Assembly (NCBI GenBank): GCA_004431415.1
Contig: QPMI01000492.1
Coordinates: 1-55,474, forward strand
DNA: 55,474 nucleotides
Direction of reading: 5' to 3'
From: Cyanophora paradoxa CCMP329
Taxonomy: Eukaryota; Plantae; Glaucophyta
Part shown: piece by piece, positions 565-26,592 of the stretch
How the letters are laid out: each line of letters starts with the position of its first letter
Position numbering within the stretch: the first letter of the stretch is position 1
Translations under genes and position numbers: made by a program
The notes under the pieces: generated by a model
Seen by the model: the letters and a program-made list of their open reading frames with translations, nothing else
Told to the model about the DNA's origin: nothing
Databases searched by the model: none

Positions 565-614
565 AAGTATTGCAATACTCCAAAAGTGCAGATATATCCC
601 AGCTCACCGTTAAA

Positions 615-1859
615 ATGCAGGAGGGCTTCGGGTCGACTTCGCTCGCCCTGAGTCGACTTATGCGCGACCTGAAGCAGATGATAAAGGAGGAGACCAAGGG
701 GCGGAAGCGCGTCTTAATTGCCGTCTACCAGGAGGGCCTCAACAGGATCAATCACATCGAAGCCCTAAGGCGCGAATTCGGCTCGGCCATCCGTCACTCG
801 GGCGTCTCGTCGAACGGAGGGGCGCAGGTGGCCCGCCTGGCGGACGCCAACTCGCGCCTCGAGATTCCCGGTACCTTCCGCATGCAGGATTGGTGGGAGG
901 CCGAGGCCTTCAGGAATTACGGGGCCTTCATAGACAACGGGATCAATTCCCAGAGCCCCAAGGCAAACTGGCTGGTACCCAAGGCCTACGTCGATAAATT
1001 GGTTGACAGGCCTGCAGCCCCTTACACCAAAAAGATCACCAAAGGCATCGAGTACTGGGCGCCCGAGCCAGGCCAGCCCGTCTTTGCATCGCAGAACTAC
1101 GAGTGGCACATGGCGCCGGGGGCGAGCCAGGCCGTCAGCACCGTGGGCGTTGCCGTACCGCAGCTGGCGGCCGTGGCGCATACAGGAGAGTACCAAGATC
1201 TAAAAGGGAGGCCGACGATACCGACAATTCCAGCAACTTGGGCGTGGGATAACATCACGGGGAAGCCGAGCACGTACCCCCATGCAGATCACCAGCACAC
1301 CATCTCTCAAATCAGCGACTGGACGGCCCCCGACTTGTCGAACATCACCGTGGACTGGGAAACTCAAGTTACGGGGAGGCCAACCACCTTCCCCCCCTCG
1401 ACTCACAGTCACAACGTGGACTGGGAAACTCAAGTTACGGGGAAGCCTCTCACCTTCCCCCCCTCTACGCACAGTCACACAGAGTACTCGCTCACCGGCC
1501 ACGGGCACAGAAACGTGAACATGGATGCTTACATTCAACACGGCACTTTCTTTCATACGTACTCTGCGTCCACAACTTTCGATCTCAACACAACATACAT
1601 TGTCACGTTCAATATGAGTTTCTCGGAGGAATACGACGCTGGTGGCGGGTTGGGGGTACCCGCAAACACGCTACCAAACGTAACAGTTACCCCATCCATA
1701 AAACTTGGAGTGGATGTCGACATGACAGTGAATGTCTACGACGTCACCTTCACCGGATTTGTCGTCAGAGTGAGGTTCAGGCCCACGATGACAGAAACGA
1801 TCATCGAATCTAAAAGGCTCACGATCTACTGGATGGCAGCGGGCAAGCTGCGGATGTAA
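615..1859 (+). CDS. Virus/phage tail-fibre-like protein with phage tail repeats and a C-terminal H-type-lectin/gp53-like head
   Basis: Motifs PKAYVD, LAAVAHTGEYQDLKGRPTIP, WDNITGKPSTYPHADHQH and 2x VDWETQVTG(R/K)PxTFPPSTHSH. C-terminus IQHG..VTFNMSF..PNVTVT..VTFTGFVVR..IYWMAAG. ATG at 615 in an AAAATG context. Confidence 0.75.
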   Translation: MQEGFGSTSLALSRLMRDLKQMIKEETKGRKRVLIAVYQEGLNRINHIEALRREFGSAIRHSGVSSNGGAQVARLADANSRLEIPGTFRMQDWWEAEAFRNYGAFIDNGINSQSPKANWLVPKAYVDKLVDRPAAPYTKKITKGIEYWAPEPGQPVFASQNYEWHMAPGASQAVSTVGVAVPQLAAVAHTGEYQDLKGRPTIPTIPATWAWDNITGKPSTYPHADHQHTISQISDWTAPDLSNITVDWETQVTGRPTTFPPSTHSHNVDWETQVTGKPLTFPPSTHSHTEYSLTGHGHRNVNMDAYIQHGTFFHTYSASTTFDLNTTYIVTFNMSFSEEYDAGGGLGVPANTLPNVTVTPSIKLGVDVDMTVNVYDVTFTGFVVRVRFRPTMTETIIESKRLTIYWMAAGKLRM

Positions 1860-1883
1860 TCGATTTTCTGATGCAATCCAAAA

Positions 1884-2711
1884 ATGTCAGTTGCTGTTCC
1901 TTTGTTCACCTACGCTGCCAGCGTGAATCACAAGGGCGATCACACGATTAAGGAGACCACCCTCGGAAACCAGGCCACCGAGACCCCCTACAACGCCACC
2001 GCCGTCCCCTTCACCGAGGCCGACCTTATCTGCGTCGGCGAGCTGCGCTGCGATAAGATGCGCACACGGGAGGGCGGGTCGGCCGTGCCGGGGCGCGTGA
2101 AGACGCAGAGGCTCACCGTCACGAACGGCTCCTGGGACGGGAGTGGTCACACCACAAACGCCCTGACCTTTAACGGTACTGCCGACGGGGAGGGGAATGC
2201 GGCGCTCTACGTGCAGGGGGGAGGGGCGGACGTGGTGGGCGGGCTGCGGGTCAACGGGGCCGCAACAATTACGGGCTACCTGAAGCACCCAAAGCCGGCT
2301 TTCTGCGTGGGCCTGAAAACAACGTTTGTAACACCAGCGGAAAAGGGGGTCATCAAACCATGGGGGTGGGCGTGGATCAACACGGGAGGCTTCAATACGA
2401 CGGAGGGCACATTCACGGCACCCGTGAGCGGGGTGTACAAATTTACGCTGTCGGCAACCAGTGCTGTCGCAGGGGCCCTTTCCGTCACGCTGCGGAGAAA
2501 CGGATCGGAAGGCGTGGATGGTGCGAAACCCTGGGCGTACACAAGCGAATCCGGCGATAACCGCAACCTTGCATTTACGTTCATGTGCACTCTGGCACAA
2601 GATCAGTACATCGATCTTTACTCCTGGAGTGGTCAGTACCTGGGCGAGGGATTGAGTGTCACACCCAGTGGCTTCACCATATTCACTGGCGAGCTTGTTT
2701 ACATGACGTGA
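1884..2711 (+). CDS. Fibre-like protein with C-terminal C1q/TNF-like domain
   Basis: PAFCVG...NTGGFNTTEGTFTAPVSGVYKFT...VTLRRNG...FTIFTGELV is the C1q signature. It is preceded by the fibre shaft motif ALYVQGGGADVVGGLRVNG. Confidence 0.8.
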   Translation: MSVAVPLFTYAASVNHKGDHTIKETTLGNQATETPYNATAVPFTEADLICVGELRCDKMRTREGGSAVPGRVKTQRLTVTNGSWDGSGHTTNALTFNGTADGEGNAALYVQGGGADVVGGLRVNGAATITGYLKHPKPAFCVGLKTTFVTPAEKGVIKPWGWAWINTGGFNTTEGTFTAPVSGVYKFTLSATSAVAGALSVTLRRNGSEGVDGAKPWAYTSESGDNRNLAFTFMCTLAQDQYIDLYSWSGQYLGEGLSVTPSGFTIFTGELVYMT

Positions 2712-2729
2712 GTCTTGGTGTAGAACGAC

Positions 2730-4763
2730 TCAGAGGCCGTACTTGGCCTTAAGGTGCGTCATCAGGCTGCTGATGTCGCCCGCGGAGCCGGAGCGCCCGA
2801 CAATGATGATCTCAGCGACAAAGGCGTTGAGGTACCCGCCCCAGACACCAATGTTCCTCCCAATGAAGCCGGATGTGCGGGCCTGTGCAAGGGGCAGCCG
2901 GTAGAGGGTCCCGTACCTCCACGCGCCCGGGATCGCGGTAGCGCCCCCGCCCTGCAGCGAAGACCAGAACGTACGCGACGTGTCCGTGAACTGGCATATG
3001 AAGACGCTGTAGGAGGATGTCGATGTCGTCTGGGGCGTGGTCGTGTACGCACTGTACGTCGTGGAATTCGGGCTGACGCCTGTGACGATCCGACCCGGGT
3101 CGTTCAGGTCGTGCATCGCGTAAATGATGCCGGATACGTCCGATACCACGCCAATGTTCCAGTAGTTCGTGTGATCTACGCTGCTTATGGCCTTCACTAC
3201 CAACGCGACCAGGAACCCATTCGGGTAAGCAACGTTGTTGAACCGCGACAGGTGCGCCGAAAAGTCTAGCCACTGGCTGGAAGCCGACGTGAAGCGCAGC
3301 GCCGGCTTGCCGTTGCTGGCGTTCGCGACGAAGGTAGGGCGGTTTGCCGGCGTCGACTGCGTTGCGGACTCTGCGGTGTTCGCGAGGTTCTGCCAGCTGC
3401 TGACCGCTGCGCCGTCTGCAAGCGAGAGGGACGAGGCGTCGAAGTGCTGCACCAGATCTGTACCGAACTGAGCGGCAACGGAGAAGAGGGTGACGCTGCT
3501 GCTTCCCGAGGAGGGGCCCTCCTCGCCCACCTGGTTGACGCCCTTGACGGTGTAAGTGTACGTGGCCCCGTAGACGGCCGTCGCGTCCGAGTAGGGGCTG
3601 GCGCTGGCGTTCGCGAGGAAGGCGCCGCCCCTGTAGATGTTGTAGGAGACGGTGACGCCCGTCGCCGGCGCGGACCACGCGAGCACCACGGGCAGCAGCT
3701 GGGGCGCCCCTTCCGTCGGGGTCGCGGTGAGCCCCGCGGGCGCCGCCGGGTCCGTGGTGACGTAGACGGCCACGCTTGTGAGCCCCTCCCCGCCCAAGTT
3801 CGTCGCGGAGATCTGGTACTCGTACCCCGTACCCCAGACCGTGGTCGCGTCGCTGTAGGAGTTGGTTGCGGAGTCTGTAAGGTAGGCCCCATCCCTGTAG
3901 ATCTTGTACCCCGTCGCCCCCGTGGGCGCCGTCCACGCTAAGCTGACGGGCTGCTGCTGATCGTCGGGTGCAGTCGCCGTCACGTTCGTGGGTGCCGCCG
4001 GCTTCGTCCAAACAATGAGGGGATCGGACTTTTCGTATTCGACCCCGCCCACGATGCCAGCCACCTGGTAGGAGTACTCCGTGCCCCATGCAAGGGCAGT
4101 GCTATCATCGATGTACGAGGTAGACAGGGCACTGCTTGCAAATCCGATTGGCGTGCCGTTCCTGTAAATTCGAATCGAGTCCACACCCTCCATCGCGACC
4201 CAGTCGATTGTGATGACGATGGTGGGTTTCGGGAAGCCCGCAGACGCGGGGCCGCCCCCTGCGATAAAATCGCCGTAGGTCTGGGCCGTGGCAGTCGTGA
4301 GGGTGGTGTAGGCTTCGATCTGCGGGCTGAAGCCGCCTATGCCTTGGAAGAGAATGTAATTGCTCATGGCACCCTCGTGGGTGTAGAGAAGCGACTGTGC
4401 GTAGGTTGTGGGCGGGGCTTTGCCATCGGAGCCCGTGCTGCTGCTGCCTTGTTCGCGAACTGCCGCCACTCGATAAAGTCGCTGGGCCCCCAAACTAAAG
4501 GGCGAGTCCGTGTAGGTGACAGTTGGTGCGTTCACCGTGGCCACGAGATCCCAGGGGCCGTTGATGCTGGTAGCCCTGTACACCTTGTACTTGACGGCAT
4601 TGGTGACGGCGACCCAGTTCAGTTGAAATCCGTAGGTGCCGCCCCCGTTATTGAGCACGGAGCCCGATCGCACCTGGGGCCTGCCCACAGTCAGCGAAAT
4701 TGGCTCCACGCCGTACTGCGGGGCCTGCACCACCTGCTTCTTCACGAATACGAAGCGGGGCAT
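2730..4763 (-). CDS. Multi-fibronectin type III protein with C-terminal LamG/concanavalin-like domain (virion surface/adhesin-like)
   Basis: Repeated FN3 patterns such as LAWTAPTGATGYKIYRDG..SYSD..YEYQISATN. C-terminal domain starts LVQHFDASSLSLADGAAVSSWQNL. 677-aa uninterrupted ORF. Confidence 0.8.
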   Translation of the reverse strand: MPRFVFVKKQVVQAPQYGVEPISLTVGRPQVRSGSVLNNGGGTYGFQLNWVAVTNAVKYKVYRATSINGPWDLVATVNAPTVTYTDSPFSLGAQRLYRVAAVREQGSSSTGSDGKAPPTTYAQSLLYTHEGAMSNYILFQGIGGFSPQIEAYTTLTTATAQTYGDFIAGGGPASAGFPKPTIVITIDWVAMEGVDSIRIYRNGTPIGFASSALSTSYIDDSTALAWGTEYSYQVAGIVGGVEYEKSDPLIVWTKPAAPTNVTATAPDDQQQPVSLAWTAPTGATGYKIYRDGAYLTDSATNSYSDATTVWGTGYEYQISATNLGGEGLTSVAVYVTTDPAAPAGLTATPTEGAPQLLPVVLAWSAPATGVTVSYNIYRGGAFLANASASPYSDATAVYGATYTYTVKGVNQVGEEGPSSGSSSVTLFSVAAQFGTDLVQHFDASSLSLADGAAVSSWQNLANTAESATQSTPANRPTFVANASNGKPALRFTSASSQWLDFSAHLSRFNNVAYPNGFLVALVVKAISSVDHTNYWNIGVVSDVSGIIYAMHDLNDPGRIVTGVSPNSTTYSAYTTTPQTTSTSSYSVFICQFTDTSRTFWSSLQGGGATAIPGAWRYGTLYRLPLAQARTSGFIGRNIGVWGGYLNAFVAEIIIVGRSGSAGDISSLMTHLKAKYGL

Positions 4764-4802
4764 TTTCCTCTACGATCCGAAAAAATATCTGCCCCGGGGT
4801 AA

Positions 4803-5483
4803 ATGACTTCCAACTGGTACCAGACCCTCAGCGGCTCACTTGACGTTGGCAACAACACCAAGGATTTCGCGCGCATCTCCTCTGGCAGCTACGTCGACGT
4901 CTTCCTGCAGAATCCCGTCGTGATTCAGGCCGTTCAGAACGCCTACGCCACGCCCAAGATTTACTCCTACCAGCTCTTCTTCGACCCTCTGAGCCTCAGC
5001 GCAGAGGTAATCGAGCTGCTGCACGAATCAGGACTCGTGAAAAAGGTGGCGCCTGCCACGGCCACAGCCAACGTCCTGCGCTGTCTCGAGGTAAAGTTCA
5101 GGGAGACGGGGTACGGCCCCACCGTAAACCAGTACACCAGTACCGATCTGCCGGGTACGGGTGCATACACGGCGCGGGGTACGCTCAAGGGCGACGTGCT
5201 CTTCACAAAATTCAACCCGAGTCCCGTGACCCTGGGGGCCCTCTACACTGGCGGCAATCCGCGCGCTTCCGGGTTACCCCGCTTCCCCTTCACCTTCTTC
5301 AGGTTTCAGGTCTTCCCCCTCTCCTACGCCGCCGACCAGCCCCACTTCAGCACGGGCGCGAGCCTCTGCGCTGAGCTGCGCGAGTGCTCGATTTCCTACA
5401 GGCACACCACCGGCTCCGACGCCGTGCAGCCCGCGGCCCGCATCTCGGGCATCGGCAACGACATCGCCCTCTTCTACGGATAA
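4803..5483 (+). CDS. Unknown protein, paralogue of 5507-6289 (possible structural protein)
   Basis: 226-aa intronless ORF sharing the blocks QNPV, SGL(V/L)KK, LE(V/L)KF, NPR..PR..FT and AEL.E..Y with the next ORF. Confidence 0.7.
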   Translation: MTSNWYQTLSGSLDVGNNTKDFARISSGSYVDVFLQNPVVIQAVQNAYATPKIYSYQLFFDPLSLSAEVIELLHESGLVKKVAPATATANVLRCLEVKFRETGYGPTVNQYTSTDLPGTGAYTARGTLKGDVLFTKFNPSPVTLGALYTGGNPRASGLPRFPFTFFRFQVFPLSYAADQPHFSTGASLCAELRECSISYRHTTGSDAVQPAARISGIGNDIALFYG

Positions 5484-5506
5484 TCTTTCTCATTCGAGAT
5501 CGCAAA

Positions 5507-6289
5507 ATGCCGACCACCTCGGCCACCATCGTGAAGACTGTGCTGCCTACCCCCGATTTCTACGGCGACACCGCAGCGGCCAACGCTGGGACGGATTCCG
5601 TGGTCTGGGACGGCAATTACGCCTCCATGCTGACCGTGAAAATCCAGAATCCCGTCATGCTGCGCGTCACATCCAACGATTTCGAGAATCCCGCCTCCTG
5701 CTCCGTGTACGTGTACTTTGACACCGACTCGGGCGTGAGCGCGGACGAGGCGGAGGCCCTCTGGCTCTCGGGCCTGTTAAAAAAGATAGAGCCCTCCGTG
5801 CCAGATCGGGCCGCGATTCGCGTGCTCGAGCTCAAGTTCACTGCCAACACCGCCCTCACCCGCACCTTCAACGGCGGCACCAAGACCCACATAGACGGCG
5901 CCCCCATCAGCAGCGCACACAAGACGACCCAGGCCGTCCCCTTTGAGATGTACAACCTCTGGAAGATGACCGCAAAGGAGATGATGACGAATGCCACCAC
6001 GGGCGGAGTCTCGGGTACCTCGTTTTCCTACGATTCCTCGAATCCCCGTACCCAGGTCTGGCCCCGGCTCCTCTTCACGAAATTCACTTTCAAATTGTAC
6101 AACAACATTGCGGGTATGCCTACCTCTGGAATGGTCGTGGGTTCTACCCTCATGGCCGAGCTGATCGAGGCGGAGGCTGACTACACGACTGCCACCACCA
6201 ACCCTGCCAACGGCACCGCTACGAACTACGTGGCCTGGAGCACGATTGACCGCGAGTACGACACTAAGATTCACACCACTAGCGTCTAG
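5507..6289 (+). CDS. Unknown protein, paralogue of 4803-5483
   Basis: Starts MPTTSATIVK at AAAATG 5507, 23 nt after the stop of the previous ORF. Homology blocks as above. Confidence 0.7.
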   Translation: MPTTSATIVKTVLPTPDFYGDTAAANAGTDSVVWDGNYASMLTVKIQNPVMLRVTSNDFENPASCSVYVYFDTDSGVSADEAEALWLSGLLKKIEPSVPDRAAIRVLELKFTANTALTRTFNGGTKTHIDGAPISSAHKTTQAVPFEMYNLWKMTAKEMMTNATTGGVSGTSFSYDSSNPRTQVWPRLLFTKFTFKLYNNIAGMPTSGMVVGSTLMAELIEAEADYTTATTNPANGTATNYVAWSTIDREYDTKIHTTSV

Positions 6290-6644
6290 ACTGGCTAAGC
6301 TGCACTAGCACCTGTGCCGCCTCCATCATCTCCCGAATCTCCTCGCTCTTCTCCTGTAAATTGGCGTACCCCCTCCTCTTCTTGCGAATCTCCGACATTG
6401 ATGCCCAGCGCAGGTTCTCCCTCCTGTAGTCCAGCGGGTTGCCGTTGATGTGTTCCACGTAGCGTCCACGTGGCGACTTCCCGAGGATCAGTTGGGAGAG
6501 GTAGTGCTTGCGCCCTCCGAACGTCTTGCTCACCCTGTCCCTGTCCACTCTCCAGGGAAACTCCAAGGCACTCGGGGGTACGTCCGAGTTGACCAGGACG
6601 TTGTAGGCGACGTCTTGCGAGTCGGTGCACTGGAGCAGGGCCAT
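6279..6644 (-). CDS. HNH_3-type homing-endonuclease-like protein with atypical residues
   Basis: YLSQLILG...YVEHINGNPLDYRRENLRW versus the family pattern VDHING(N/D)xLDNRxxNLR. Confidence 0.75.
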   Translation of the reverse strand: MALLQCTDSQDVAYNVLVNSDVPPSALEFPWRVDRDRVSKTFGGRKHYLSQLILGKSPRGRYVEHINGNPLDYRRENLRWASMSEIRKKRRGYANLQEKSEEIREMMEAAQVLVQLSQSRR

Positions 6645-6668
6645 TTTGCCCTAGGTTCAGAAAAACCT

Positions 6669-6741
6669 GGGACTTGGGACTTGGGACTTGGGACTTGGGA
6701 CTTGGGACTTGGGACTTGGGACTTGGGACTTGGGACTTGGG
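6669..6741 (+). repeat. (GGGACTT)10 heptamer array, G-quadruplex-competent
   Basis: 10 perfect copies followed by GGGAAGAGTT. Confidence 0.95.
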
Positions 6742-7072
6742 AAGAGTTGAAACCCAGGTCCCGGCCCAGACTTTCTCCAGGATCAGAAATTTGTCAGACA
6801 AGTCAGGTGAGTTTTTCTATCGACTTTTTTACTCCTACCACCCCTCATACTCTTTTTTACTCGTAGTCTTTTTTACTCGTATCCCATCTCATACCCTCCT
6901 TCTCTCGACATCTCGCACGAAAACTCCTACCCCCCTTCGTCTGGAATGTCACCAGAAACGTCGTATGCAGATTTCCGTACCCCTGTCTAAGTCTGCCCGG
7001 TGGTTAGGGACTTGGTGCAGCAAACTCTCAGATCCAGAGAAATTCTGGGCCCAGACCCTGAGTCTAACTCTT

Positions 7073-7110
7073 CCCAAGTCCCAAGTCCCAAGTCCCAAGT
7101 CCCAAGTCCC
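7073..7110 (+). repeat. (CCCAAGT)5 heptamer array, inverted relative to 6669-6741
   Basis: 5 perfect copies preceded by AACTCTT. Confidence 0.95.
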
Positions 7111-7184
7111 AGGATCGCGCCAAGTCATAACTGAATAGTCGGCCAATTTTTACAAGTATGTACAATGGAATGACGCAATACTAT

Positions 7185-8255
7185 TTACATCATCTCGAGA
7201 TCAGAGTCATCGTCATCGGAAACCAACTCAATGAGGCCCTCGGGCGCCGACTTAAGGGGAATGCGGGGAAGGGCCTGCGCTGCCTGCACCAAGTCCTGCC
7301 GCTCCTGCTCGCGCTGCGCCGCCAAGGCCGCTGCCGCCTCTGCCTCGCGCTGCCGCTGAGCCTCGATGCGCGCCTTGAGCTCGGCTGCCTCCTTCTGCTT
7401 GCGCTCGGCGACGCGGGCCTTGTGCATCTCGCGCTGCTTGATCCGCTCGTGGCGCCGCTTGCGCTCCAACTCCTTGCGAAGCTCGTTGCAGAGGACGCGC
7501 TTCTCAATGGTCTTGACGTGCTGAGTCAGGCGCTCGCTGTAGTGTGACGTCACGCGAGAACGGGCAATGCCAGCGCCGAGCTTCAAGTCCTTCTCGTGTG
7601 CCTTGGCGGGGTCCTTGACGCGCTCGGAGTTGTCGGTGAATGACGTGGTCTCCATGAACTTCTTCTTGACGATTGACTTGGTCTTGATAATGCGGCGCTT
7701 GCGAGTCGGGTTGTCGTTGTCGCCTTCAGAGTCAGAAGACGACTCAGAGTCGTATGGAATCGGCACGTCAAAGTCGATGAAGTCGTTGATGTCAGACTCG
7801 GCGTCAGAGGCCTCGGACTTGGCGTCGTCGACGGGCTCGGGGGCGGGCTCGGCGACGGGCTGAGGGGCAGATGACGACGATGACGGAGGGGGGTAATTCG
7901 TGAAGACTTGAGGGGGATAGGCCCAGGCGAGCGTCTCGGCGGCAGACTCGGCGAAAAGCTTGGGGTCGCCCCAGCCAGTGGGAGTCTTGACCCAGCCGGG
8001 GACGGGGGGCACGTCGACGGGGGGCTCGGGCTTGGGTTGCTTGGCCTTGGATTTCTTGGCCTTGGACGTGAAGGCGGACTTGGGGAGAAGTTGCACTTCG
8101 GGGCCAGTGGCGCGTAAGATGGCATAATTGTAGATGTACCCCAGAGCGTCGGCGCGCTGCTCCATCTCAGGGGTAGCCCCTTGAGTGCCACCGGAGTTAG
8201 CCCACGTTGCTTGGACAAAGGCGAAGTCCTCAACAAGCTCAGAAGGAATCGACAT
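7185..8255 (-). CDS. Orphan nuclear protein: Pro-rich/acidic region, basic NLS-like patch, coiled coil, C-terminal SIM-like motif
   Basis: ATG at 8255 (MSIPSELVEDF) directly after a GCGCAG acceptor-like site. Contains PTRKRRIIK, an E/R/K/A coiled coil and LIELVSDDDDSD at the C-terminus. Confidence 0.65.
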   Translation of the reverse strand: MSIPSELVEDFAFVQATWANSGGTQGATPEMEQRADALGYIYNYAILRATGPEVQLLPKSAFTSKAKKSKAKQPKPEPPVDVPPVPGWVKTPTGWGDPKLFAESAAETLAWAYPPQVFTNYPPPSSSSSAPQPVAEPAPEPVDDAKSEASDAESDINDFIDFDVPIPYDSESSSDSEGDNDNPTRKRRIIKTKSIVKKKFMETTSFTDNSERVKDPAKAHEKDLKLGAGIARSRVTSHYSERLTQHVKTIEKRVLCNELRKELERKRRHERIKQREMHKARVAERKQKEAAELKARIEAQRQREAEAAAALAAQREQERQDLVQAAQALPRIPLKSAPEGLIELVSDDDDSDLEMM

Positions 8256-8600
8256 CTGCGCAAAGGGAAAAGAGATCAGCAAAGGCAAAACGTGAGGTGA
8301 CTGTGAGGGCGGACTTGCACGGATTCGGAGAGGCGGAGTTTGCTTGGGCTGAGAGAGGCGGCGAACCCGTTTCAAGAGTGAGCCAAAATGGCGGCGGACC
8401 GCGGTTTTGTTGCCGATTTTTTTTGCGGTCTAGTTGGCAACAGAAACGTTGCGAACTGGCCCGGAAAAAAGTTGGGCCGAAGGTAAAAAAGTTGGGCCGA
8501 AGCCCCCCTACCCCGCTGAGCCGGCCTGACGGAAATCGCCCGAGTGCGTCCGCCGAAGGTCGAGTCTCGGATGGGGGGTACACCCTCAGGGGGCCCCCTC

Positions 8601-9092
8601 TCATTCTGGCAGTACCCTCTGAAATGGATTTTCGAAGCCGTGTAATTGCTGGTATTCATCGTACCCCTCAAGCGAGGGGCTGTACCCCACTGTTACCTGT
8701 GGGAGCCCCATTGCGCGCCTCCGTCTGTCCTCTCTCAATTGGCTGCGGAAAAATCTGCGTCTGTCTTGGCTGTCGCGTGTCGCGCCATCTGTGTTGGATC
8801 GATCATTGTTAGGGTTGTGAGTGTCACGTACTAGCTGTACGAAATATTCGCGTAGGTCAGCTGGTAGGTTCTGGAAGTTGTCTGCTGCGTAGAGCTGTAT
8901 CCATTCCCTCAACCTGAATGGGAACTGACTGGCAAGCCCCAGCGCGTGATTGAAATCGGGCTCCGGCGACACGCCAGGGGGGACTGAGATGTGCCAGCGC
9001 CAGAAATCGGTCAATCGTGTGAACAATTGATTGATTTCAAATGGGAAATCGTAGAACAAGGGCGGGGGCGGCCCCGGAGGTTGGTTAGCCAT
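8601..9092 (-). CDS. Orphan protein of about 163 aa (MANQPPGPPPPLFYDFPF...)
   Basis: AAAAATG start with the TTTTCGGA motif 11 nt upstream, like the other island genes. Confidence 0.6.
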   Translation of the reverse strand: MANQPPGPPPPLFYDFPFEINQLFTRLTDFWRWHISVPPGVSPEPDFNHALGLASQFPFRLREWIQLYAADNFQNLPADLREYFVQLVRDTHNPNNDRSNTDGATRDSQDRRRFFRSQLREDRRRRAMGLPQVTVGYSPSLEGYDEYQQLHGFENPFQRVLPE

Positions 9093-9123
9093 TTTTCTCC
9101 CCTTCCGAAAATTTCCCCGCTTT

Positions 9124-9770
9124 TGAGTCCAGACTCTGATTTTAACTCTTCCCAAGTCCCAAGTCCCAAGTCCCAAGTCCCAAGTCCCAAGTCCCAAGTC
9201 CCAAGTTTTCCCTCAATTTCACGCGTAGAAAACGCACTTTTCGGCCTTTTCCGATTTTTCTTTTCTCGCGATCGCAGAAATGCCCCCGATCTCGAAATCG
9301 CGATCGAAAAGGGTCGCGATCGGGAGAAAGTCGCGATCACCACCGAGGGCCGCAAGAGTGGCCTTAGGGGGTAGGGCTCGCAGTAGGGAGATTCCCTCGG
9401 GGTTAGTCTAGCTGGAGACCCAATAGGGGGGAGGTAAGCTAGACTTGTCGTGTGTTTGTAGGCCTAGGCCTAGGGTAGGCAGATAGCATTAGCTGTTTGT
9501 CAACTTGGGGCACCAGTCCCCTAATACACTAGGGATTACTGAAAAAAAAAATGAGTCCAGACTCTGATTTTAACTCTTCCCAAGTCCCAAGTCCCAAGTC
9601 CCAAGTCCCAAGTCCCAAGTCCCAAGTCCCAAGTTTTCCCTCAATTTCACGCGTAGAAAACGCACTTTTCGGCCTTTTCCGATTTTTCTTTTCTCGCGAT
9701 CGCAGAAATGCCCCCGATCTCGAAATCGCGATCGAAAAGGGTCGCGATCGGGAGAAAGTCGCGATCACCA
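9124..9770 (+). repeat. Two identical 219-bp direct repeats (9124-9342, 9552-9770), each with (CCCAAGT)8, flanking a 209-bp poly(A)-ended insert
   Basis: Copies read TGAGTCCAGAC...GCGATCACCA. The insert at 9343-9551 ends in an A10 run. Confidence 0.9.
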
Positions 9771-12949: not shown

Positions 12950-15900
12950 AACAGACGGTGCACAGAAGAGGGGTACATGGATGGCCAACGTGGAACAGAC
13001 CCGGTCACCTCGCCGGCCAACCCGTCCCCTGCCCTTGGCCCTGCCCCTGCCCCTGCCCCTGCTGCGCCGCCGCGGGGGGCCTCGCCCCCGGCCACCCCGC
13101 CCCGACCCCCGCCGCCCCCGCCGCGCTGCCGCCGCCGCCGCCGCCGGCGCTGCTGCTGTCGTCTCCGTACTGTGATGCTAGGTACGCTTCCTCCTGATCC
13201 GCGTCGAACTGGAAGCAATAAAATCAGTTAGTAGCCGCCTCTGGAAGCAATAAAATCAGTTAGTAGGATATTTATTTGAACCTGGGACTGCTGCTGGGGG
13301 TGCGCGTGCGACGTGTGCGAGGGCCCCGCCACGCGCTGCACGCCGCCCCCGCTCGTGAAGGCCACCGTCTGCTGCCCCTCCTGCAGGCCCGGCTCAGAAA
13401 GAGAATGAAGGGGGGGGGATGAAAGAGGGGGTACGCGAGCCTGCGCGAACTGGAGGGGGGCTACCGCCTGGGCCGCGGCGCCCGTCGCCGCGAGCGAGTA
13501 CTGCTGCAGCGACATCGCCTGCAGGAGGAAAGAAGGAAATGAGAGAAGGCGTTCTCGAATTAAATTGGACAGGCGAGCGATCACCTGCCCCGCGGCGGCG
13601 GCGGCGGCGAAGGTCGCCGGGTCGACCCCGAACGGGACCCCGCCGGCGCCCGCCTGCGCCTGCGCTTGCGCCTGGGCGGCCGCCGCCGCCTGCTGCTGCT
13701 GGGCCGCTGCCGCGGCTGCGTAGGCTCCGAACTGGTCCAGGCCGCCCGCCCCAGCCTGAGCCAACATCTGCGGGATTATGTCAGGACACGCGTGGTTCTG
13801 TTCTATTCGGCACTGTGTTTAGCTTAGCACTGTATTTAGCTTAGGTACTTATGGGGCTTTGCTAGTTAAGGCTAAGATCATTTTCCTTCCTCCAAACGCA
13901 CGTGCTATGGCGTTGTTGTATGTTTAGGCTAGTTAGGCGTCGGTTCGTTTATTCTAAGCCGCTGGATCGGATCCGGCGCACGTGCTGCCACTGGGCGGCG
14001 AACTGCAGCTAAAGGAAGCTATGTGTTTGGCTTATTAGGCTAGTTAGGTGATTAGGAAGCTAAAGGTGAGGTTAGGAAGCTTATTTCTGACTGGCGCGCG
14101 CGTCAGTTCGTTTAGGTAGCTTATGGAGCTTTGCTAGTTAAGATTAAAATCAGTTTCCTTCCTCCAAACGCACGTGCTGCCACTGGGCGGCGAACTGGAG
14201 CTTCAGGAAGTCGCGCAGCTGGACGACGACCGCCTCCACCATCGACGTCCGCCCGTCCAGCTCCGAGACCGCCTTCGAAAAGGAAACGTTTGATAAGAGG
14301 AAGAAAGAAGGGTGCGTGCGAAGACAGAGGGGGGGAAGCGGGGGGCGCCCGCCTGCTCCGTGGTGGTCGAGCGCCGGAGGAGCGAGAGGCGAAGGCGGCT
14401 CATGTCCTGCCGCCGCCCCGGATCGAATTCATCCGGGCGGGGCGGGGGGGGCCGGGGGTACCTGTTTCAGGGCGACGATCGCCTGCCGAATCTCGCGCGC
14501 CTCGTCCGCCGTGCGCCCCTCCAACGCAGCCTGCGCCGAAAATAAAAAACAGATGCGACGCGATGCGAGATCCGAAAACGGGCCCCGCGGGGAGTCGAAC
14601 CTGGTCCCTTGCGAGCTTCTCGATCTCCTGCGCGAGATCGTCCGCCTTCGCGTCCATGTCCGCCGCCAGCGCCCGGCTCTGGGGTACAGCGTTTCATATC
14701 TTTGTCTAGGAGGAAGGGGGGGGGGGCGAGGAGGGGGTACCTTGGCCATCGAGACGCGCTGCAGACCCTCGTAGTACGTCCGCTCGAGCTCCTCGAGACC
14801 CTCCACGGAGAGGTACGCCTGCGCCGAAAGTGTAAGGGGGGTACGGATTCTTTAGGGGGTACGGGTACGAGGGCGGACCGTGTCGGCGCCCTCGAGGCGC
14901 GAGATTTCCATCTGGAGCCGCTCACAGTCCTCCGTCCGCTGCCCGAGCTGCGAGAAGGGGTGGTGAGGGGGAGGAAGAAGTCCGGGGGGGGTACGTGCAC
15001 CTCCATCCTCGCCCGGTTCAGCTGCCTCCGAAGGCTCGCGATCTCCTCCTCCATCATCCGCGCCTGTTAGATGAGGCGGAGGGGGGGTTTCAGGGGTACA
15101 GCTGCGCTTCGGCGGGGAGGAGGGGTACGGGCCTTCTCCGGGTTGCTGAGGTCACCCGCCCCCAAAACAGCGTCGTTCGCGTGGCCCTGCGTACCCGGGG
15201 CCCGCGTCGGGCGCGGCGGGGGGTACGCGGTCGTCCAGCAGGGGTACCGTACCTTCAGAAGGAGCCCGGCGCCCTTCCCGCCCTTGGTCCTGCGCGGCGG
15301 TCGGACCGGCGCCCGTTTGCCGCCCGGCGCGCTCGCGTCGCTCAGGCGTACCCGGCGGCGGCCTGCGCGGCCTGGGGGTACGACATCGCGGCCTTCTTGG
15401 GGTCCTCGTCTGGTATCTCCTTCGGGACCTGAGAGCGGTTTGCATGAGCCTCTACCCCTGCCCCTGTGCGCCACTTGAGAAACCGCCCCGCCCGAAATCG
15501 AACCTCGGCCACAACAGCGACAGTGTGGAACGATCCGCACTCGACGGCGATCACCTGCAGCCGCGCGGCCTCAGAGGGGGGTACGAGCGGGGCGGGGCGG
15601 GGCGGGGGGAGGCCCGCCTTCTGTCCCTTAAGCGACTCCACGAGTACGGGTTGCGCTACCCCCTGCTCCCCCTGGTCCCCTGCGCGGGTGTGAGGGGGCG
15701 AAGGGGTACATGGAGATGCAGGGGGCCGCACCGATACCCAGCCTGCCGAACTCGCCGGACCCCCACACGAACAACTCGCCCGCCTGGGGCGGTACCCCGT
15801 CGGGCTCGAAAAGGGGGTACAGGTTAGGGGCGGGCACCTCCGTGGCGGCAGCTGTGTGGTGCGTGCCGCAGGCGAGGGCCCGTATCCGCGCCCTCGCCAA

Positions 15901-17321
15901 CGCTTCGACTGGCCGCGGCATCCACTTGTCCTGAGGGAAAAGGGTAAGGCGGAAAAGGGGGGAGAAGCGGGAGAGGGGTACGCGCCTTTCTGTCCCCGTG
16001 CCCTAGCTGCCCCTTGTCGCCGCAGCCCCACGTGAGGAGGGCGCCCTCCTCTGCAGCGCGCGCTCAGGGGCGCGCGGGACGTCGGTGTACCCCCCCAGGC
16101 GTCGGGGGCCGTACCCGTGATGCATGCGGTGTGGAAGCCGCCGGCGGTGACGAAGCGTATCCTCCTCCCCCTAAGCGATTCCACTACCCCCGGGGCGGGC
16201 CGGCTGCGGGACGGGGCTTCCTTCGAGCGCGCTCTGGGGGGGGGGTACGCGGGCGAACCTCTTGTCGTCGCCGTGGCCCAGCTTTCCAAATTCACCCGAT
16301 CCCCACGTCCAAAGCTCGCCTGGGCAAGGATTCAGACGGGGTACGAGCGCGCCAGCGAAGATGGGGTACACCGCGCCTTTGTCCGTGATGACGCAGGTGT
16401 GGTGGGTACCGCAGGCTATCTGGGTGACGACGGTACCCTTGAGGGCCTGCAGGGAGATCTCATCGTCAAGCAGGGCGGGGCGAGCGGGGCGGGGGTGGGG
16501 TCGCCTTGACGAGGCGGGGGGTACGTCGTTCCCTGTCGTCGCCGTGCCCCAGCTGGCCAAAGTACCCCCCGCCCCAGCTGTACACAGCTCCCGTTCCTGC
16601 AGCGCCCGCCGGGTCGGCGGGGATGCGCGAATCGAGCGGCGGGGGGTACGCACGCGTGAGGGCCACGGAGTGGAAGCCTCCGCAGGAGACGGATACCACG
16701 TCCTTCCCTTGGAGCGCCTTCAGGAGGACCGGCTCCGCCTGGGGTACGCCTCAGGTAAGGGGGGAAAGAGCCGGGCGGGGTACGCGTTGTACGTGCCTGG
16801 TTGGTTTCGTCCCCGAGGCCGAGGCGGCCGTACTCGCCGGCGCCGCACATCCAGAGCTCGCCGGTGTCGGTGAGGAGCGCGGTGTGGTACCAGCCGCAGC
16901 CGAGCGCCGTGCAGCGCTTCCCCTGCATCGCTACGATCTGCCGCGGCGTCGGCTGGCTCCCCGCCATAATCGTCGTCCCGAGGCCTACGCGGGCCGCCGC
17001 CGCTCAGCGCGCGCGAGCGAGCGAGCGGCTGTCGAGCCGGCGATGCAACCGCACCGAGCTGGCCGAAGTTGCCGCGCCCGAAGGTGAAGACCTGCCCGTC
17101 CGCTGCCGGGGGCCCGGGTTAGCTGCGGCGGCTGGCCCGAGGGCAAGGTCCGCCGCACAGGTCAGGAGGCACGTGTGCTGGTTTCCGCATGCGATCATGC
17201 CGATCTGGCGCCCCAGCATCGCCAGGAGCAGCCGCGGCTCGGCGAGGTCTGCATCGTCGCCGTGCCCCAGCTGCCCCAGCGTGCCCTGGCCCCACGTGTA
17301 CGTGGCCAGCCCATACTGCAT
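12950..17321 (-). CDS. RCC1-repeat protein with coiled coil and low-complexity A/Q/G tail (multi-exon)
   Basis: Repeats such as YTWGQGTLGQLGHGD..IACGNQHT, LWMCGAGEYGRLGLGD, VYSWGGGYFGQLGHGD and LWTWGSGEFGKLGHGD. The 3' exons include MLAQAGAGG..QQQQ at 13767. 3' end approximate. Confidence 0.8.
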
Positions 17322-17761
17322 GGCGGCCTGCGAGCGCACAAGCGGTCCCGCGCCCTCGGTGAGCGCTGTGAAGGTCGAGCGGGGCGGCAAGGGTAACGGC
17401 GGCTTCCTGCTCTCTCCCGCGCACCTGCTTCGGCCCCGCCGCCATCCCACCACTGCAGCGCAGATCAAGCTGTACCCCTCATTCAACCGAGGCTCAGCCG
17501 TTTGCAAGGCTGGCTTTCTTTGAACGCGTCGGCTGTCTTTGCTGCGCAACCAAGCCGAAGGAGCGGGATCCGTTCGACGAGTCGGACGCCGCACCGCCCC
17601 TCCCGGCCCCTAGCAAGCCTTCCGAGATCCCCTGCGCGCTCCCCGCCGAAAAGCAGGAGCTCTTTTTCGATCTTCCGCCGTATCCCGAGGAGTCGGAGAT
17701 CGTCCGCGACCTCAAGTTTGAATCAGCTCTCCGCGACAGAGCCCACAAGGAATATATCGAC

Positions 17762-20441
17762 ATGTTTGGACACCAGGGCCCTCAGCAGGCGTATCCGCAG
17801 GCGCCTCTCGTCGCCGCTGGCCAGCCTACTCTCCCCGGCGCTCCCGGCAAGGGTGCCCACGGCACCGAACAGAAAATTGTGCTCGTCTCCACCGCTGATC
17901 CGAAGCTCAACGTGCGTCGCTTCAGCTTTCGGGCGGTTTGGTGGTTGCCCTATCTGACGGTGATGATGGTGTCCGTTGGCAGAACTGGCGCACGGATGCG
18001 GTGGACAAGGGTGCTCCCTTCAGTCCCGCCGACTTTCGTTTCCGCTGATTTGTTTTGCAGTCACCCGCGAGCAGCTGAAGCACCTCCAGGAGCGCCTCGC
18101 TAAGGTGCGCTAATCGAGTCAGCCATTTCGAATCGGACACCGACCGTCTCTTCAGGTCTCGGAGGAGCACAAGGTCCTCTATGACAAGGTCCAGGCCAGC
18201 ACCAATCCCGAGGGTCGGTAGAACCGTTCGCGGACAGCGCTGCCGTCGCGCCACTGACCGTTTTGTGTGCTCCAGGCGTGATCAAGGTCCAGGTCATTCG
18301 CGCCACCAAGTGCGCTTTCGCTCACTATCTCTTCTTTTCTCTGAGCTCACCGATGTCACGCACAGCCTCAAGGCGGCCGATCCGAACGGTCTCAGCGATC
18401 CCTACGTGCGCAAGAACCAATCGGCTGAGCGGCTGGGCGCTGCCGTTGACCGGAGGGCGCGCTGCAGGTCGTCATGCGCTTCGAGCCCGTCAACAAGGCC
18501 GGCCGTCTGGCCTCCATGATCGGCGCCCCGGAGATCCTGGCTGGCCAGCTCGTCCAGGAGAAGAAGACTGAAGTTGTGGAGAAGAACCTGAACCCCTCGT
18601 TCAAGGATGTCGTCTACGAGTTCGGCGTTGAGATCAAGCAGTGCGCCGCGCCGCTGGCCGCGCGTCGCGCCGCGCCGCTACTGTTGCTTACGCCGGCGCG
18701 CCCGCAGCTTTATGGACGCCGATGGGCGCCCATTGATCACGAACCAGGGGCCGAACTCCCCGATCCCAGGACCCGAACTCACGCTCCGCGTCATGGACGA
18801 GGACAAGTTTGCCTTCAAGGATGATTTCCTTGGCATGGCCAGAATCAAGTGGGACCGCCTCACCACTGGTGCGCCTGCCCGCTGGCAGTGTGCGGAACGG
18901 CGCGGTGCCGACGTCGACGCGCCCCGCCTGCAGAGTTCTCCCAGCCCGGCAGCCGAGTCATCCTGGACATCACCAAGGAGAAGTGGGAGGGCAACGATCC
19001 CGTCGGCGGGGGCGGCCTGCTCGAGGTTCACATCAACTACGAGCGCAAGGTGGGTGGGCTGAGCGGCGGCGCGGCGGGGCTCGGGGCTCTCGGCCGATGA
19101 CGGCGCGGCGGGTCGGCAGGTCCCGGTGACGGCAGAGTCGTTCCAGGATAGCCAGCGTCTGCAGCGCGTGGCGACGGAGATGCGCCACCTGACGAATGCG
19201 GTCAACAAGAAGACCGCGAAAATGATCGAGCTCTGCACGGCGCGCTTCGAACTCGCTCGTGCCGACCTGACTTTCTACTCGGCGAAGCGCACGGAGCTCT
19301 TCAAGAGGCAGCAGCAGCTCGCGATGGCCTCGAACTCGGCGACGGCCGTGCACGGCACCCTCTCCGTCACGCCCATCCGCTGCGAGGGCCTCCGCTCCGG
19401 TAACCCCATCTTCGGCACCGCCGACGTCTACCTCTGCTTCCGCCTCAACAACGGTCCGCCCGCCCGGCGCCTTCGGCTTCTCCTTTTCGCTCTCTTCTTT
19501 GACGTGTCTCCTCCTTCCCGGCAGGGAATCGCATGACGGTGCCGTCGTATGAGGAGTACCAGGACGAGAAATGCCTCTGCTTCGGCGAGACGCCCGTGTT
19601 CTCCATGCCGGCCACCAAGGTGGTCATTTTCGACGACCGCGTCTTGAACGACCCCAAGGTCATGAAGGGCGACGCCAGACCCTGGCCCTACCGCATGTGC
19701 GTCTGCATTTAGACCTTCTCGGGCGGCTGAGGGCCAGGCCCTGACACCCGGCGGGCCGCCCGCCCCCTCGCGCGCAGCAAGGTGACGCATCCCGCCGCGT
19801 ACATCGTCGTGGACATCTTCCACTCGATCTCGGCGACGCCGCGGACCGTGGTGCCGCTGGTGAACAAGTGCCTGGGGCGCGTGCACATCCCGGTGCTGGA
19901 CATCCTCCACCTGCCGCCCGGCGAGCGCACCTTCCAGCTCGAGGCCGACACGGTCGACAACCTTTTCGGCTCGGCCGCCACGGGCACTGTCGCCCTCAAG
20001 GTTCGCGGCGCGGCGCGGCGCGGGGGGCGGGGCGGCCTTCGCGGCCTTGGCGGCCTTTGGGGGAGTCGGGGGTCCGACCCGCTGGGTCCCGCAGTTCGAG
20101 TTCCACCCGGAGCCGTCGAGCGAGGCTATGAAGGACCCGATCCAGAAGGAGCTGGATGAGGAGGACGCGCGCATCGATCTCGATGTCATGAAGAGCGAGA
20201 TCGAGTACGTCACCAACCAGATGACCCACATGGAGAAGGATATGAAGCTCTTCGGTGCGCGCGCGTACCCCCCGCGATGCTTCGCCTCTAGTTTCCCGTA
20301 CCCCCTCCTGACCTTCTCGCACTTCCGCCCCCGCCCGCAGACCAGCTGCGCCTGTACTTCGACGCCACGACGAAGAACAACCTGCTGGCCTCGACCGGAT
20401 CGGCCAACCCCGCCGCGCGCGCCCCGACCACGACCTCGTAG
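17762..20441 (+). CDS. Double C2-domain protein (multi-exon)
   Basis: IKVQVIRAT..LKAADPNGLSDPY..KTEVVEKNLNPSF..LTLRVMDEDKFAFKDDFLGMA. Second C2 domain GTLSVTPIRCEGL..ADVYLCF. Confidence 0.8.
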
Positions 20442-20589
20442 ACGAGGGACGGTCCCAGCCCCGGCCTCGGCCTCTGCTCCGCCGCGTTGTAATGCAGTAC
20501 CCCCCGCCCCCAACCCACACACCGTTTTGTGCAACCGAACCAACCCTTTTCTCATCTCTTCATGTCCTCTCTGCAGCTAGTGGGCTATA

Positions 20590-23190
20590 GCTAGGCGGTG
20601 AAGAAGAAGCCGGCTATGACGGGGTCGGCGGCGCCTTCGGGCACGGTCGAGCAGTTGACAGCGAGGGGCCAGCGCCGCCCGAAGATGCGCACTGCGACGT
20701 AGATCTGGAGGAACACTGTGAGGCGGGGGGTACAGGCTGATGATCGAGGAGGGGGGTACCAGGTGGTGCTGGAGACAGGAGACACCCGCCTCGAGCCGGG
20801 CGAGGAGGGCCGCTTCTTCCGCCTGGGGGGCGCCGGGGTCCGCGGAGAGGCGTACCCCTCGCTGGAGTTGGACCTGGAGGAGGGGGTACGGGGCCTCCTC
20901 GTCGGCGGCGCGCACGGTCGCGACGGAGAGGGCGCAGCCGGGGCGGCCCCCCGGGCAGGCGAGGCGGAGGGGGCGGGAGGCAGGGGGCCGCCCGGGCCCG
21001 TTCGGGTGCTCGAAAATCGTCGCCTCCTGCGGTACCCGTGAGCGGTGCCCGGAGCAGGGTAGAGACGAGGGGAAAGAAGGGCGTACCCTCACGGACGGGA
21101 AGTGCGCCAGGAGGGCGCTGGACGCTAAGTAGGCCTGCGGGCCGCCTCGAGAGGCTTCCGGGGGGTACGATGCCCAAGGCGGGGGGTACGGCACCGTGGG
21201 GAGGCAGAGGTCGGCCATACCCCAGGGCTCGCTGAGGGGGTGGTGCCGGCAGGGGAAGCGGGGCAGCACGAGGGACCTGGGGGGCGCGGCGCGAGCGCTG
21301 TCGAGACGCGCGGGGAGGGTACAAGGGAGGGAGGGTACAAGGGAAAGGAAGGGGGTACCTGTTTAGAGCTTCGGCGAGGCGCAGCATACCCCGCAGGGCG
21401 TCCACGTGGTCGTCCCACGTGAGCTCCTCTTCAGGTCCGTCCAACGCGTACCTGGCGGATCACGTTAGGGGTACGCCTTTCGAACTCTGGGAGGGGGTAC
21501 GGCGCACGAGAGGAAGCGTCCCTCGTAGTAGGAGGGGGAGTCCACGAACCAGAGCCCCTCGTTCCTGAGCACGAACCTAAGGGGGTACGGTATCAGGAAG
21601 GGGTAGAGGGGCGGAGGGGTACGCGCGCGCTTCTTGCCGCCGTGCTTCAGGGGCTGCCCGTTCGCGTGGGCCACGTACGGCCGTACCCCCGCCCGCTGCG
21701 ACCGCCGGGCCACGAAGAAGAACTCCGACTCGGCGAACTGCATACCCCCGTGAGCGCGCTGAAAAAGGCGTACCCCCGCAGGGACCACGCCTCCATGAGG
21801 GGTAGCTCGTTTGCGGGGATCTGCAGCCCCCAGGCCAGCCCGGAGACTCCGAAGGCTCTGCCCCGCAGAACGTCGGCCATAATGGCCTGGCGGGGTACGG
21901 TGAGAAAGGTATGGTGGAAAGGACGGGTAAGGGGGTACGCGATATCGGGACGCGCCTGCCCTGAGCGGAAGCCGGGGCCATCCGCGGGCCGTTCGCCCTG
22001 GGGTACCTCCAGGACAAGAGTCTCCGCTGGCGGGACGCTACCCTGGTCAGGTGAGCACCGCCTCTAGCTCCGGGATCCCGCAAACGAACCGACGTCCAGC
22101 AGAAGACCGACGACCGCAGGCTCGGAGCGGGCGTACATGAATCCTACCTGACGGGGGTACGCGCTCGAAAAGGGTCGGGGCTTCACCGTAGTTGCAAGCA
22201 GCGCACATTCAGCTCGTTCCTGATCGAAGGGAAGTGAGCGGGGCCCGAAGGCTTAGGGCGCCGGGGGTACACGGCTCGCACGTAGAGGGTTCCCCCATAA
22301 ACTCGACGGCGTGCGTTCGGGCCCGGAAGAAGGGGGTAGGGTCCCGCAGGAAAGCCACCTGGGAGGGGTACATCGTTAGGTCGGCGGGGGCCACGGCGAG
22401 GGGGTACGGGAGCGCGCGCACGTCAATGTCGACGATGACGGCGTCGTACCCGCGCACGAGGACGGCCGCCGCGTGGCTGGAGCCGGGAGGAGAGTGAGGG
22501 CGCGGCTGCGGGGCGCGAGAAAGAAGGCGGCACCGGAATTTGAAGACGTCCTGGTGGTCGAAAGGCTGCGGGCCCGCGGCGGCGAGCAAGTCGTCGAAGT
22601 ACGCCACGGCGCCGCGCTCCCTCGCGATCGGCTGCGCGGGCCGCTCGCGCCGCAGCCGAGACAAAGAGAAAGAGAGAGCGCGCGCTGCCACGCACGATCA
22701 CGTCCGGGCTCGAAGTGAAGACGAGCACGTTCCGCACAGATGCCCGCCTGCGCGCTCGGGGCGTCGCCGCGGACGCGAATGGGCCGCACTGCGCACGCAC
22801 GCACCTGGCAGACTCCAGACAGTTGGCGAGCATGTCGAGCGCCTCGCCCCAGTTCAGCTCCATTTCCGACCCTGTGAACGGCTGCGCCGTACGTGAGCGG
22901 TTGCGTACGCGGCCTCTTGAAGGAAGACGCAGGCTCCCACTTACGTGCATCGTCACCACGTAGACCAGAGAGGTCCCCGGCGCCCGCGATGCCGCGGCGT
23001 GCACCGCCCCATCCAAGGCGGGGTCTGCAGCGAACACGAGGGGCGGAACGAAGGGCAGTTCCGACGCCAGCGCTCGCACGTCTATCGGCACGGGTGTAAA
23101 GCTGCTCCTGCTCGCCGCGATGCACAGAGCGAGCAGCTGCAGGAGCGCCCAGACCGCGGCCGGCCGCGCGCGCCATCGCCCGGGGCTCAT
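20590..23190 (-). CDS. Nucleotide-diphospho-sugar transferase (GT77/Nucleotid_trans-like), multi-exon
   Basis: Signal-anchor N-terminus; VLVRGYDAVIVDIDV (DxD motif), GFMYARS, YVAHANG, LRNEGLW and LRGMLRLAEALNR..LPRFPC. Confidence 0.7.
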
Positions 23191-23346
23191 CCTTCGGCCA
23201 TCGTCGCTGCTGCAATCGTTCTGCTCTCTGATCGAATCCGCGCCGCCGATTCCGCGACACAGAGGCCTAGCGATGCCCAGTTAAGCCGACTGCTCGACCA
23301 GGGTAGATCAAATTGGCCAGCTGCTCGAATTGCGCGAAGCTGAACG

Positions 23347-24938: not shown

Positions 24939-25326
24939 CCCCAGGCCTAGGGGCGGCCGGTCGGCATCGGAATTAGATCTGTAGCCTCTGCCCGCCATGC
25001 CCTCCTAAAGGCGCCCGTGCGGCAGACGAAAGAACGCAGACTAAGAGTAAGGACAGAAACTAGATACAGGGCGAGGGCGAATCTGGCTCGGCAGGGTAAG
25101 CGGGCGGGCGTAAGCGGGCGGGCGGGCAGGAAGTACGGTGCACGGGGAGGCGGGGGGAGGAAAGGATAAAGAGAAGCGCTCAGATGAGAACGGGATGGCT
25201 CAGGCGAGCGGCGGGAGGGTGGGGAACGAGGCCGGAGCCCGCCGGGGCGGCGGGGAGGGGCTGGAAGGAGCATCCGGGGCCGGGGCCGGGGCCGGGTGGG
25301 GCGGGGAGGCGGCGCGAGGGGACGCC

Positions 25327-26516: not shown

Positions 26517-26592
26517 GCGTGTGTGCTGCAAGTTCCGACGCGGCAGAGTTCAACGCGCCTGTACCCGCCGTACTTTCGCAGCTGTACCCAAG

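Follow-up and report, generated by a model that had tools for sequence, protein, structure and literature searches.

How are the genes of a virus-like island in the genome of the glaucophyte Cyanophora paradoxa switched on, and by whose machinery? The window, that is the whole stretch of DNA analysed here, is contig QPMI01000492.1 of strain CCMP329 (55,474 nt). Near its left end lies the right arm of an intron-poor element that is present in about 50 copies in this alga; the remainder of the window belongs to the host and is rich in introns. Judged by its genes, the element is most likely one of the published polinton-like viruses (PLVs) of this host. Both the gene content and these published elements agree with the analogy to PLVs and virophages drawn in a preliminary description of the same DNA, which had also reported the motif TTTTC(T/G)GA at a fixed distance ahead of several start codons and had taken it for an element-specific, late-type promoter or initiator. 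Open reading frames (ORFs) are named here by the position of their start codon.

Four such boxes, with a spacing of 11–12 nt and with AAA directly before each ATG, are found exactly where that description had placed them. The octamer reads TTTTCTGA at 1864–1871 on the forward strand, 12 nt ahead of ATG 1884, and again at 6657–6664 on the reverse strand, 12 nt ahead of ATG 6644. It reads TTTTCGGA at two further sites on the reverse strand, 4776–4783 (12 nt ahead of ATG 4763) and 9104–9111 (11 nt ahead of ATG 9092). All four sites have an A or a T on both flanks, which extends the motif to the 10-mer W-TTTTC(T/G)GA-W (W-TTTTCKGA-W). The individual 10-mers are ATTTTCTGAT (1863–1872, forward strand; 16.5 bits, leave-one-out 14.4), which occupies the 24 bp gap behind the stop codon of a fibre gene, TTTTTCGGAT (4775–4784, reverse strand), which lies within a 39 bp head-to-head gap, TTTTTCTGAA (6656–6665, reverse strand) and ATTTTCGGAA (9103–9112, reverse strand). 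The box is separated from AAA-ATG by 8–9 nt, and the base before AAA-ATG is A, G, C and A in the four genes. The spacers differ among the sites and the upstream flanks match at 3–8 of 19 nt, which shows that the sites did not arise as copies of each other.

The box is real, and it is its placement and not its count over the window that stands out. By itself the octamer is not enriched: five copies are present in the window against 2.1 expected, and 5 of 100 shuffles reach five. Four of these copies stand at ORF starts of the island, while the fifth, at 14578 on the reverse strand, has no ATG at a matching spacing. The null models included the post hoc discovery of the motif, in that the best octamer with one two-letter position and a tolerance of ±1 nt was sought in eight upstream 40-mers. 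Six nulls were used: four shuffled the letters (by mononucleotide, dinucleotide, block or column) and two drew ATGs at random from the host or from the island. Four shared sites were reached in 0 of 2000 trials in every one of them. With ATG 615 omitted, none of 3000 trials reaches four in each of three nulls. When both 615 and 9092 are left out, three of the six remaining starts carry the box, a number that the nulls reach in 0, 5 and 21 of 3000 trials.

The box is also not equally common before host ATGs, an outcome that the preliminary description had named as one that would speak against its reading. At positions −18 to −22 it is present at 4 of 171 island ATGs and at none of 860 host-side ATGs (most such ATGs are not starts), and it is absent ahead of all 11 hand-picked host starts. 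The leave-one-out scores of the four sites (14.0–14.4 bits) lie above those of all 159 other island ATGs and all 860 host-side ATGs. Weaker variants had been noted before ATGs 615, 4803 and 5507. Only the last of these holds: TCTTTCTCAT (5484–5493, forward strand) is placed 2 nt farther from ATG 5507 and scores 8.3 bits, compared with 14–16.5 bits for the full boxes. This score is reached by none of the 159 other island ATGs and by six of the 860 host ATGs (0.015 in its own shuffle). The supposed variants at 4803 (0.1 bit) and 615 (−2.9 bits) are dismissed.

The four boxes always point towards their own gene at the fixed spacing. One is present on the 5′ side of gene 4763, which is arranged head-to-head with ORF 4803 across a gap that indeed measures 39 bp, and none is found at the two tail-to-tail junctions, which speaks for a role at the 5′ end and against a terminator. 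AAA precedes the ATG at six of seven likely starts, compared with 0 of 34 internal in-frame ATGs, a set without ATG 615, and none of the 11 hand-picked host starts. The intergenic gaps measure 23–39 bp, and tandem genes are 23–24 bp apart, which leaves no room for a host-type promoter. Of the promoter or initiator proposed earlier, the part that stands is an element-specific signal at the 5′ end, given its fixed spacing and orientation, its presence at the head-to-head gene and its absence from tail-to-tail junctions and host starts. The label 'late' is plausible for the two box genes with a structural product; a third box gene encodes an HNH nuclease and no virion protein. The very short 5′ untranslated region (UTR) and the helper-virus factor we infer by analogy.

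A few other explanations of the box were tried and rejected. A splice acceptor is ruled out, since no AG is present between the box and ATG 1884. The sites share no hairpin (z from −0.29 to −1.94), and hairpins of the Mimivirus type at the 3′ ends are unconvincing (z of −2.0 and 0.3). CpG decay does not account for the T/G position, which is a transversion, and the observed-to-expected CpG ratio in the island is 1.0.

On balance, sequence and analogy make us lean towards a reading in which the box and AAA-ATG together make up a core promoter, belonging to an endogenous PLV with many copies, that is read by viral machinery, most likely that of a helper giant virus. A factor would bind the T-tract and the near-palindromic TCKGA core and place the transcription start within the AAA or immediately ahead of it, so that leaders would not exceed about 12 nt. 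Since no RNA polymerase is encoded in the arm, reading the box would fall to the machinery of a co-infecting giant virus, namely its polymerase with late or intermediate factors, as for mavirus and Cafeteria roenbergensis virus (CroV).

The TCTA box of the latter pair stands 11–20 nt from the ATG. The Cyanophora sites share with late promoters of CroV and mavirus the A/T flanks (W-TTTT before the core and W after it) and the fixed 11–12 nt to the ATG, but the TCTA core itself is not present, the sites reading TCTGA or TCGGA. More generally, the likeness to TCTA and to the boxes seen in endogenous mavirus-like elements (EMALEs) lies in a short TC core, an A/T context, a short fixed way to the ATG and an endogenous small dsDNA virus as carrier (PMC8547959, PMC10945749, PMC13196603). 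What differs is that the core, TC(T/G)GA, follows a T-tract in an element of 60% GC for which no helper is known. Each type of EMALE is described as having its own upstream box, and CroV wakes none but the type whose box matches that of CroV (PMC8547959, PMC10945749).

Other systems resemble the Cyanophora signal in part. The genes of the PLVs Gezel-14T and PgVV are headed by the early motif AAAATTGA of Phaeocystis globosa virus (PgV), so that here too PLV genes, including a homing endonuclease, follow a box of the helper type (bioRxiv 10.1101/2022.07.28.501842). Two of the four Cyanophora sites share with this motif a W-run followed by TGA, but the required TG is missing from the other two, and the run is of T and not of A. 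The early WWWWWTGW of Mimivirus and PgV, with its invariant TG, is likewise not matched: a C stands before TG in two sites and TG is absent from two. The TCCGGA box of Tetraselmis virus 1 (bioRxiv 10.1101/2022.07.28.501842) is one base away from TTCGGA, and TCCGGA itself does not occur at the Cyanophora sites. The logic of shared boxes is reported to have been applied to Halocafeteria, Tetraselmis and Antarctic data as well. Late and intermediate promoters of poxviruses and bipartite promoters of African swine fever virus have a similar layout, in which a core rich in T is followed by a spacer and by an AAA initiator joined to the ATG, with nearly no leader, a layout that the late TCTA box of CroV also shows, but the TAAAT of poxviruses is not conserved in Cyanophora, where C, G or A precedes AAA, and the spacer is 8–9 nt instead of 5–7 (PMC5294985). 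None of the four box genes begins with the poxvirus late initiator TAAAT(G). Finally, a punuivirus combines intron-bearing, host-like genes with intronless genes behind a viral box (bioRxiv 10.64898/2026.10.09.758095); punuivirus, however, belongs to the giant viruses, encodes a polymerase and uses the box AAANAACATAAG, whereas in Cyanophora the element is small and the split depends on a single predicted intron.

A scan of IMG/VR with the box in its G form plus AAAATG gave at least 120 scattered matches, and among the matches listed each is on a separate contig. Ten large virus records, picked by one match each, contain 1–7 copies and no genome-wide use of the box; at other spacings, five of the ten carry 0–5 copies. 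Our literature searches returned no promoter described for Cyanophora PLVs or giant-virus insertions. The word 'promoter' does not occur in the main texts of PMC12220804 and PMC10120064, and PMC11296320 contains no passage on promoters.

One gene of the island departs from this pattern. ORF 8255 (7185–8255, reverse strand) encodes a 356-residue coiled-coil protein with acidic and basic stretches. Its start has neither box nor AAA; the ATG, a conserved start, lies right behind a host-like 3′ splice site, in which CTGAT resembles a branch site and is followed by a run of pyrimidines and by CAG. A 65 nt intron is predicted in the 5′ UTR (8256–8320, reverse strand; GTGC...CTGAT...pyrimidines...GCAG) and resembles nine host introns of 50–71 nt, seven of which also begin with GTGC. 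The family of the protein comprises 55 members in 28 clusters, all from EukProt. The protein has a basic RKRR stretch, which recurs in 26 of 28 family members, and an acidic hydrophobic tail that resembles a SUMO-binding motif. Scans with domain and PHROG profiles reveal no DNA-binding domain. The basic stretch and the acidic tail together recall a nuclear immediate-early regulator.

The presence of this box-less gene beside the box genes hints, from its sequence, at two expression programmes. The terminal gene would be transcribed by the host polymerase with a spliced leader and would act while the element is integrated. One may go further and suppose that the provirus is held or primed by this spliced, host-transcribed regulator, with the box genes awaiting a giant virus that uses the same late box and has left relics in the same genome; we regard this extension as tentative and rather unlikely in its full form. 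An alternative donor at 8696 on the reverse strand, which is used by the predicted model P0035, would fuse ORF 9092 in frame to ORF 8255.

Several observations weigh against the promoter reading with a giant-virus reader. The in-frame splice from 9092 to 8255 would possibly place a box-driven RNA in the nucleus; if it is real, that RNA is spliced, which favours a nuclear, helper-free virus. The box differs from TCTA, AAAATTGA, TCCGGA, TAAAT and AAANAACATAAG alike. ORF 4803 has no box, AAA also stands before ATG 615, which is likely internal, and ORF 9092 may not be a gene, which would leave three sites. No A32 packaging ATPase, penton, integrase or recombinase, polymerase or helicase was found among the nine island ORFs scanned, which belong to the right arm only, and no double jelly-roll major capsid protein in the window, which covers only the arm to the right of the junction at 597, so that the assignment to PLVs is indirect. 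The left arm, which lies outside the window, could encode a factor of its own. The letters of the box were read in the DNA of a single copy. Other copies were compared through contigs from four sequencing runs, which cover 580–6664 only; two runs are of DNA (403 and 353 contigs, with many variants over this range), and the contigs of the two runs guessed to be RNA may be DNA. Summed run depth was not taken as a copy number. Two variants give indirect evidence in favour of the box. One, in which the start of ORF 4763 has diverged (joint 4285–4776), becomes alike again precisely where the box begins, at 4776, and does so in the two DNA runs; the other, with another fibre head, does so at 1862, 2 nt before the box. 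Both joints also fit plain conservation of the neighbouring gene. In a third variant, which counts against the box, the likeness returns only at 1882, past the box.

The rival that we take most seriously, while still thinking it unlikely, is an autonomous nuclear virus whose box recruits host polymerase II through an activator encoded by the element, possibly the product of ORF 8255, with no giant virus involved. The position of ORF 8255 next to the terminus, its host-like intron, the RKRR stretch and the tail all fit such an activator, as would the possible splice out of ORF 9092, and some PLVs are described as replicating without a helper (PMC10945749, PMC11502894). This rival has to accommodate a signal at −20 in gaps of 24 bp that is unlike host promoters, being found at none of the 11 host starts, an activator in which the profile scans detect no DNA-binding domain, and box genes without introns in a genome with a reported mean of 9.2 introns per gene (PMC6704402).

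The tight coupling of the box to AAA-ATG, and the tandem genes only 23–24 bp apart, would also suit a role in RNA, where a box in a short leader sets the start of translation or serves to process longer transcripts and no DNA promoter is involved. We consider this improbable, as the box is also present where no tandem gene lies upstream (4763, 6644 and 9092), there is no shared hairpin and the splice-acceptor version fails. Still less credible is that short AT-rich gaps share a functionless motif by chance or by ancestry. It is true that the motif was found post hoc in seven or eight sequences, that one of the ORFs is doubtful and that the octamer is not enriched over the window, but nulls that preserve composition and positional profile never reach four sites, flanks and spacers are unrelated, and the leave-one-out scores of 14 bits exceed those of all 1019 control ATGs.

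The assignment of the island to a PLV of this host is supported by its proteins, which are found in EukProt with cluster mates named Cyanophora paradoxa. The same gene order, by gene numbers, is present on tig00021587 (g22695–g22700), tig00020734, tig00021247 and tig00021070. Like PLVs, the island is multicopy and integrated with compact, intron-poor genes, and it has phage-like fibre genes and an HNH accessory gene. The literature lists 156 glaucophyte PLV elements, with one example from the same host that has a tail-repeat fibre (PMC12220804); these share with our island the host, this fibre and an HNH_3 domain, which is present in 40 of the 156 by our own count of the table columns, but the present copy was not matched to any listed element. 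Capsid genes have been published for C. paradoxa on contigs without a link to this copy (a count of 366, which we take as capsid matches; PMC10120064), and insertions of giant viruses are reported in this alga (PMC12344493). No related loci were found in IMG/VR for ORFs 4803, 615 and 4763 or for the distant relative P0046, nor in JGI metagenomes.

The island begins with the 3′ remnant of a long fibre gene (597–1859, forward strand) with phage tail repeats and a variable head (PHROG tail matches, E = 2e-9). Its likeness to other copies begins at about 597, a loose end in the run contigs, and this junction falls inside the fibre gene. Judged from these alignments, ATG 615 is probably no gene start and would code for an internal Met in a 5′-truncated gene for 1,400–1,700 residues. 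The models P0061 and P0064 of other copies (1395 and 1682 residues) align from 594, by which point more than 900 of their residues have gone before, and one run contig departs at 597; its 18 letters beyond this point give, in frame, six residues, of which five are identical to P0061/P0064 (translated by hand; one contig, depth 2). Counter to this, model P0063 takes this Met as its start, and none of the 34 other internal Met codons is preceded by AAA. In the island fibre, an H_lectin head like that of the published fibre was not confirmed, and the predicted fold of the head has a predicted local distance difference test score (pLDDT) of 51 and no structural match. Fibre heads are exchanged among copies at 1400–1860 and 2200–3700, where many joints replace C-terminal domains and the stalks are common. 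In place of the left arm, positions 1–596 hold AT-rich DNA and three 107 bp palindromic tandem repeats.

The first box gene (1884–2711, forward strand) encodes a C1q-headed protein of 275 residues (PF00386, E = 1e-6), which its sequence suggests is likely a virion fibre. The second (2730–4763, reverse strand) encodes a 677-residue protein with Ig/fn3 repeats (PF00041, PF18370) and a C-terminus resembling structural proteins (phrog_1696, phrog_10356). The third (6279–6644, reverse strand) is the HNH_3 endonuclease (PF13392, E = 1.9e-7). The fourth full box precedes a 163-codon ORF (8601–9092, reverse strand) of uncertain gene status: its codon score is −0.04 compared with 0.20–0.44 for the other seven ORFs, an ORF of this length arises in 30 of 2000 shuffles, no homologue was found, and the ORF is absent from the protein collection that contains other island proteins.

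ORF 4803 (4803–5483, forward strand; 226 residues) is weakly predicted to adopt an OB-fold of the ssDNA-binding kind (pLDDT 61), with a weak match to T7 gp2.5 (Z = 5.4, root-mean-square deviation 4.0, 115 aligned residues); its family has 48 members in 11 clusters, all from EukProt. Its paralogue ORF 5507 (5507–6289, forward strand; 260 residues, 29% identity, E = 1e-18) has the weak box and cluster members named Cyanophora paradoxa. The gap between the two is read through unchanged in three gene models of other copies. This tandem pair (4803–6289) is restricted to the host but for one relative with 42% identity, P0046, on a short Logan contig. A single jelly-roll capsid for ORF 5507 (Atlas 0.86, low recognition) is not supported by the fold of the paralogue, itself a weak OB-fold match, and P0045 was dropped as a spurious, repeat-driven match.

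Two 219 bp direct repeats with heptamer arrays (9124–9770) are likely the right terminal region of the element. This end is repeat-rich, and in the test for terminal inverted repeats and target-site duplications the window holds no left end. Four arrays of one 7 bp unit are present, each within a related block of 60–75 bp: those at 6665–6742 and 7071–7111 are inverted relative to each other and enclose some 260 bp of non-coding DNA, and those at 9150–9206 and 9578–9634 sit in the direct repeats. They could be origin or terminal elements, and two boxes adjoin them. At 6803–6865 on the forward strand a strong donor and, about 59 nt away, an acceptor rich in pyrimidines, both seen by eye in the non-coding cassette, suggest a spliced non-coding or antisense RNA. 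The host part holds a long inverted duplication (29514–30065 versus 36290–36845, 92–100%) of intron-containing gene pieces about 6.3–6.9 kb apart, and four 148 bp tandem exon–intron repeats in a coiled-coil gene (52803–53400). Many host introns at 14300–30600 and 39200–40150 are rich in GGGGTAC/GTACCCC words, possibly an intron-borne repeat or signal, and introns of neighbouring genes are without them.

What is new here is the sequence of the box and the host lineage, and what is known is the kind of signal, although the figure on EMALEs and the bioRxiv supplements, which lie outside our comparison, might hold a similar box. As signals of this kind are well known, the surprise is modest. The box serves as a marker of true gene starts in elements that are mis-modelled by intron-aware predictors. 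The giant virus that wakes an endogenous PLV is recognized from the promoter boxes that the two have in common, and a sharp 10-mer at a fixed spacing makes the question of the helper testable on the public assembly. If two programmes and a giant-virus key indeed exist, the box would be the sequence key to the first virus–virophage pair of a glaucophyte.

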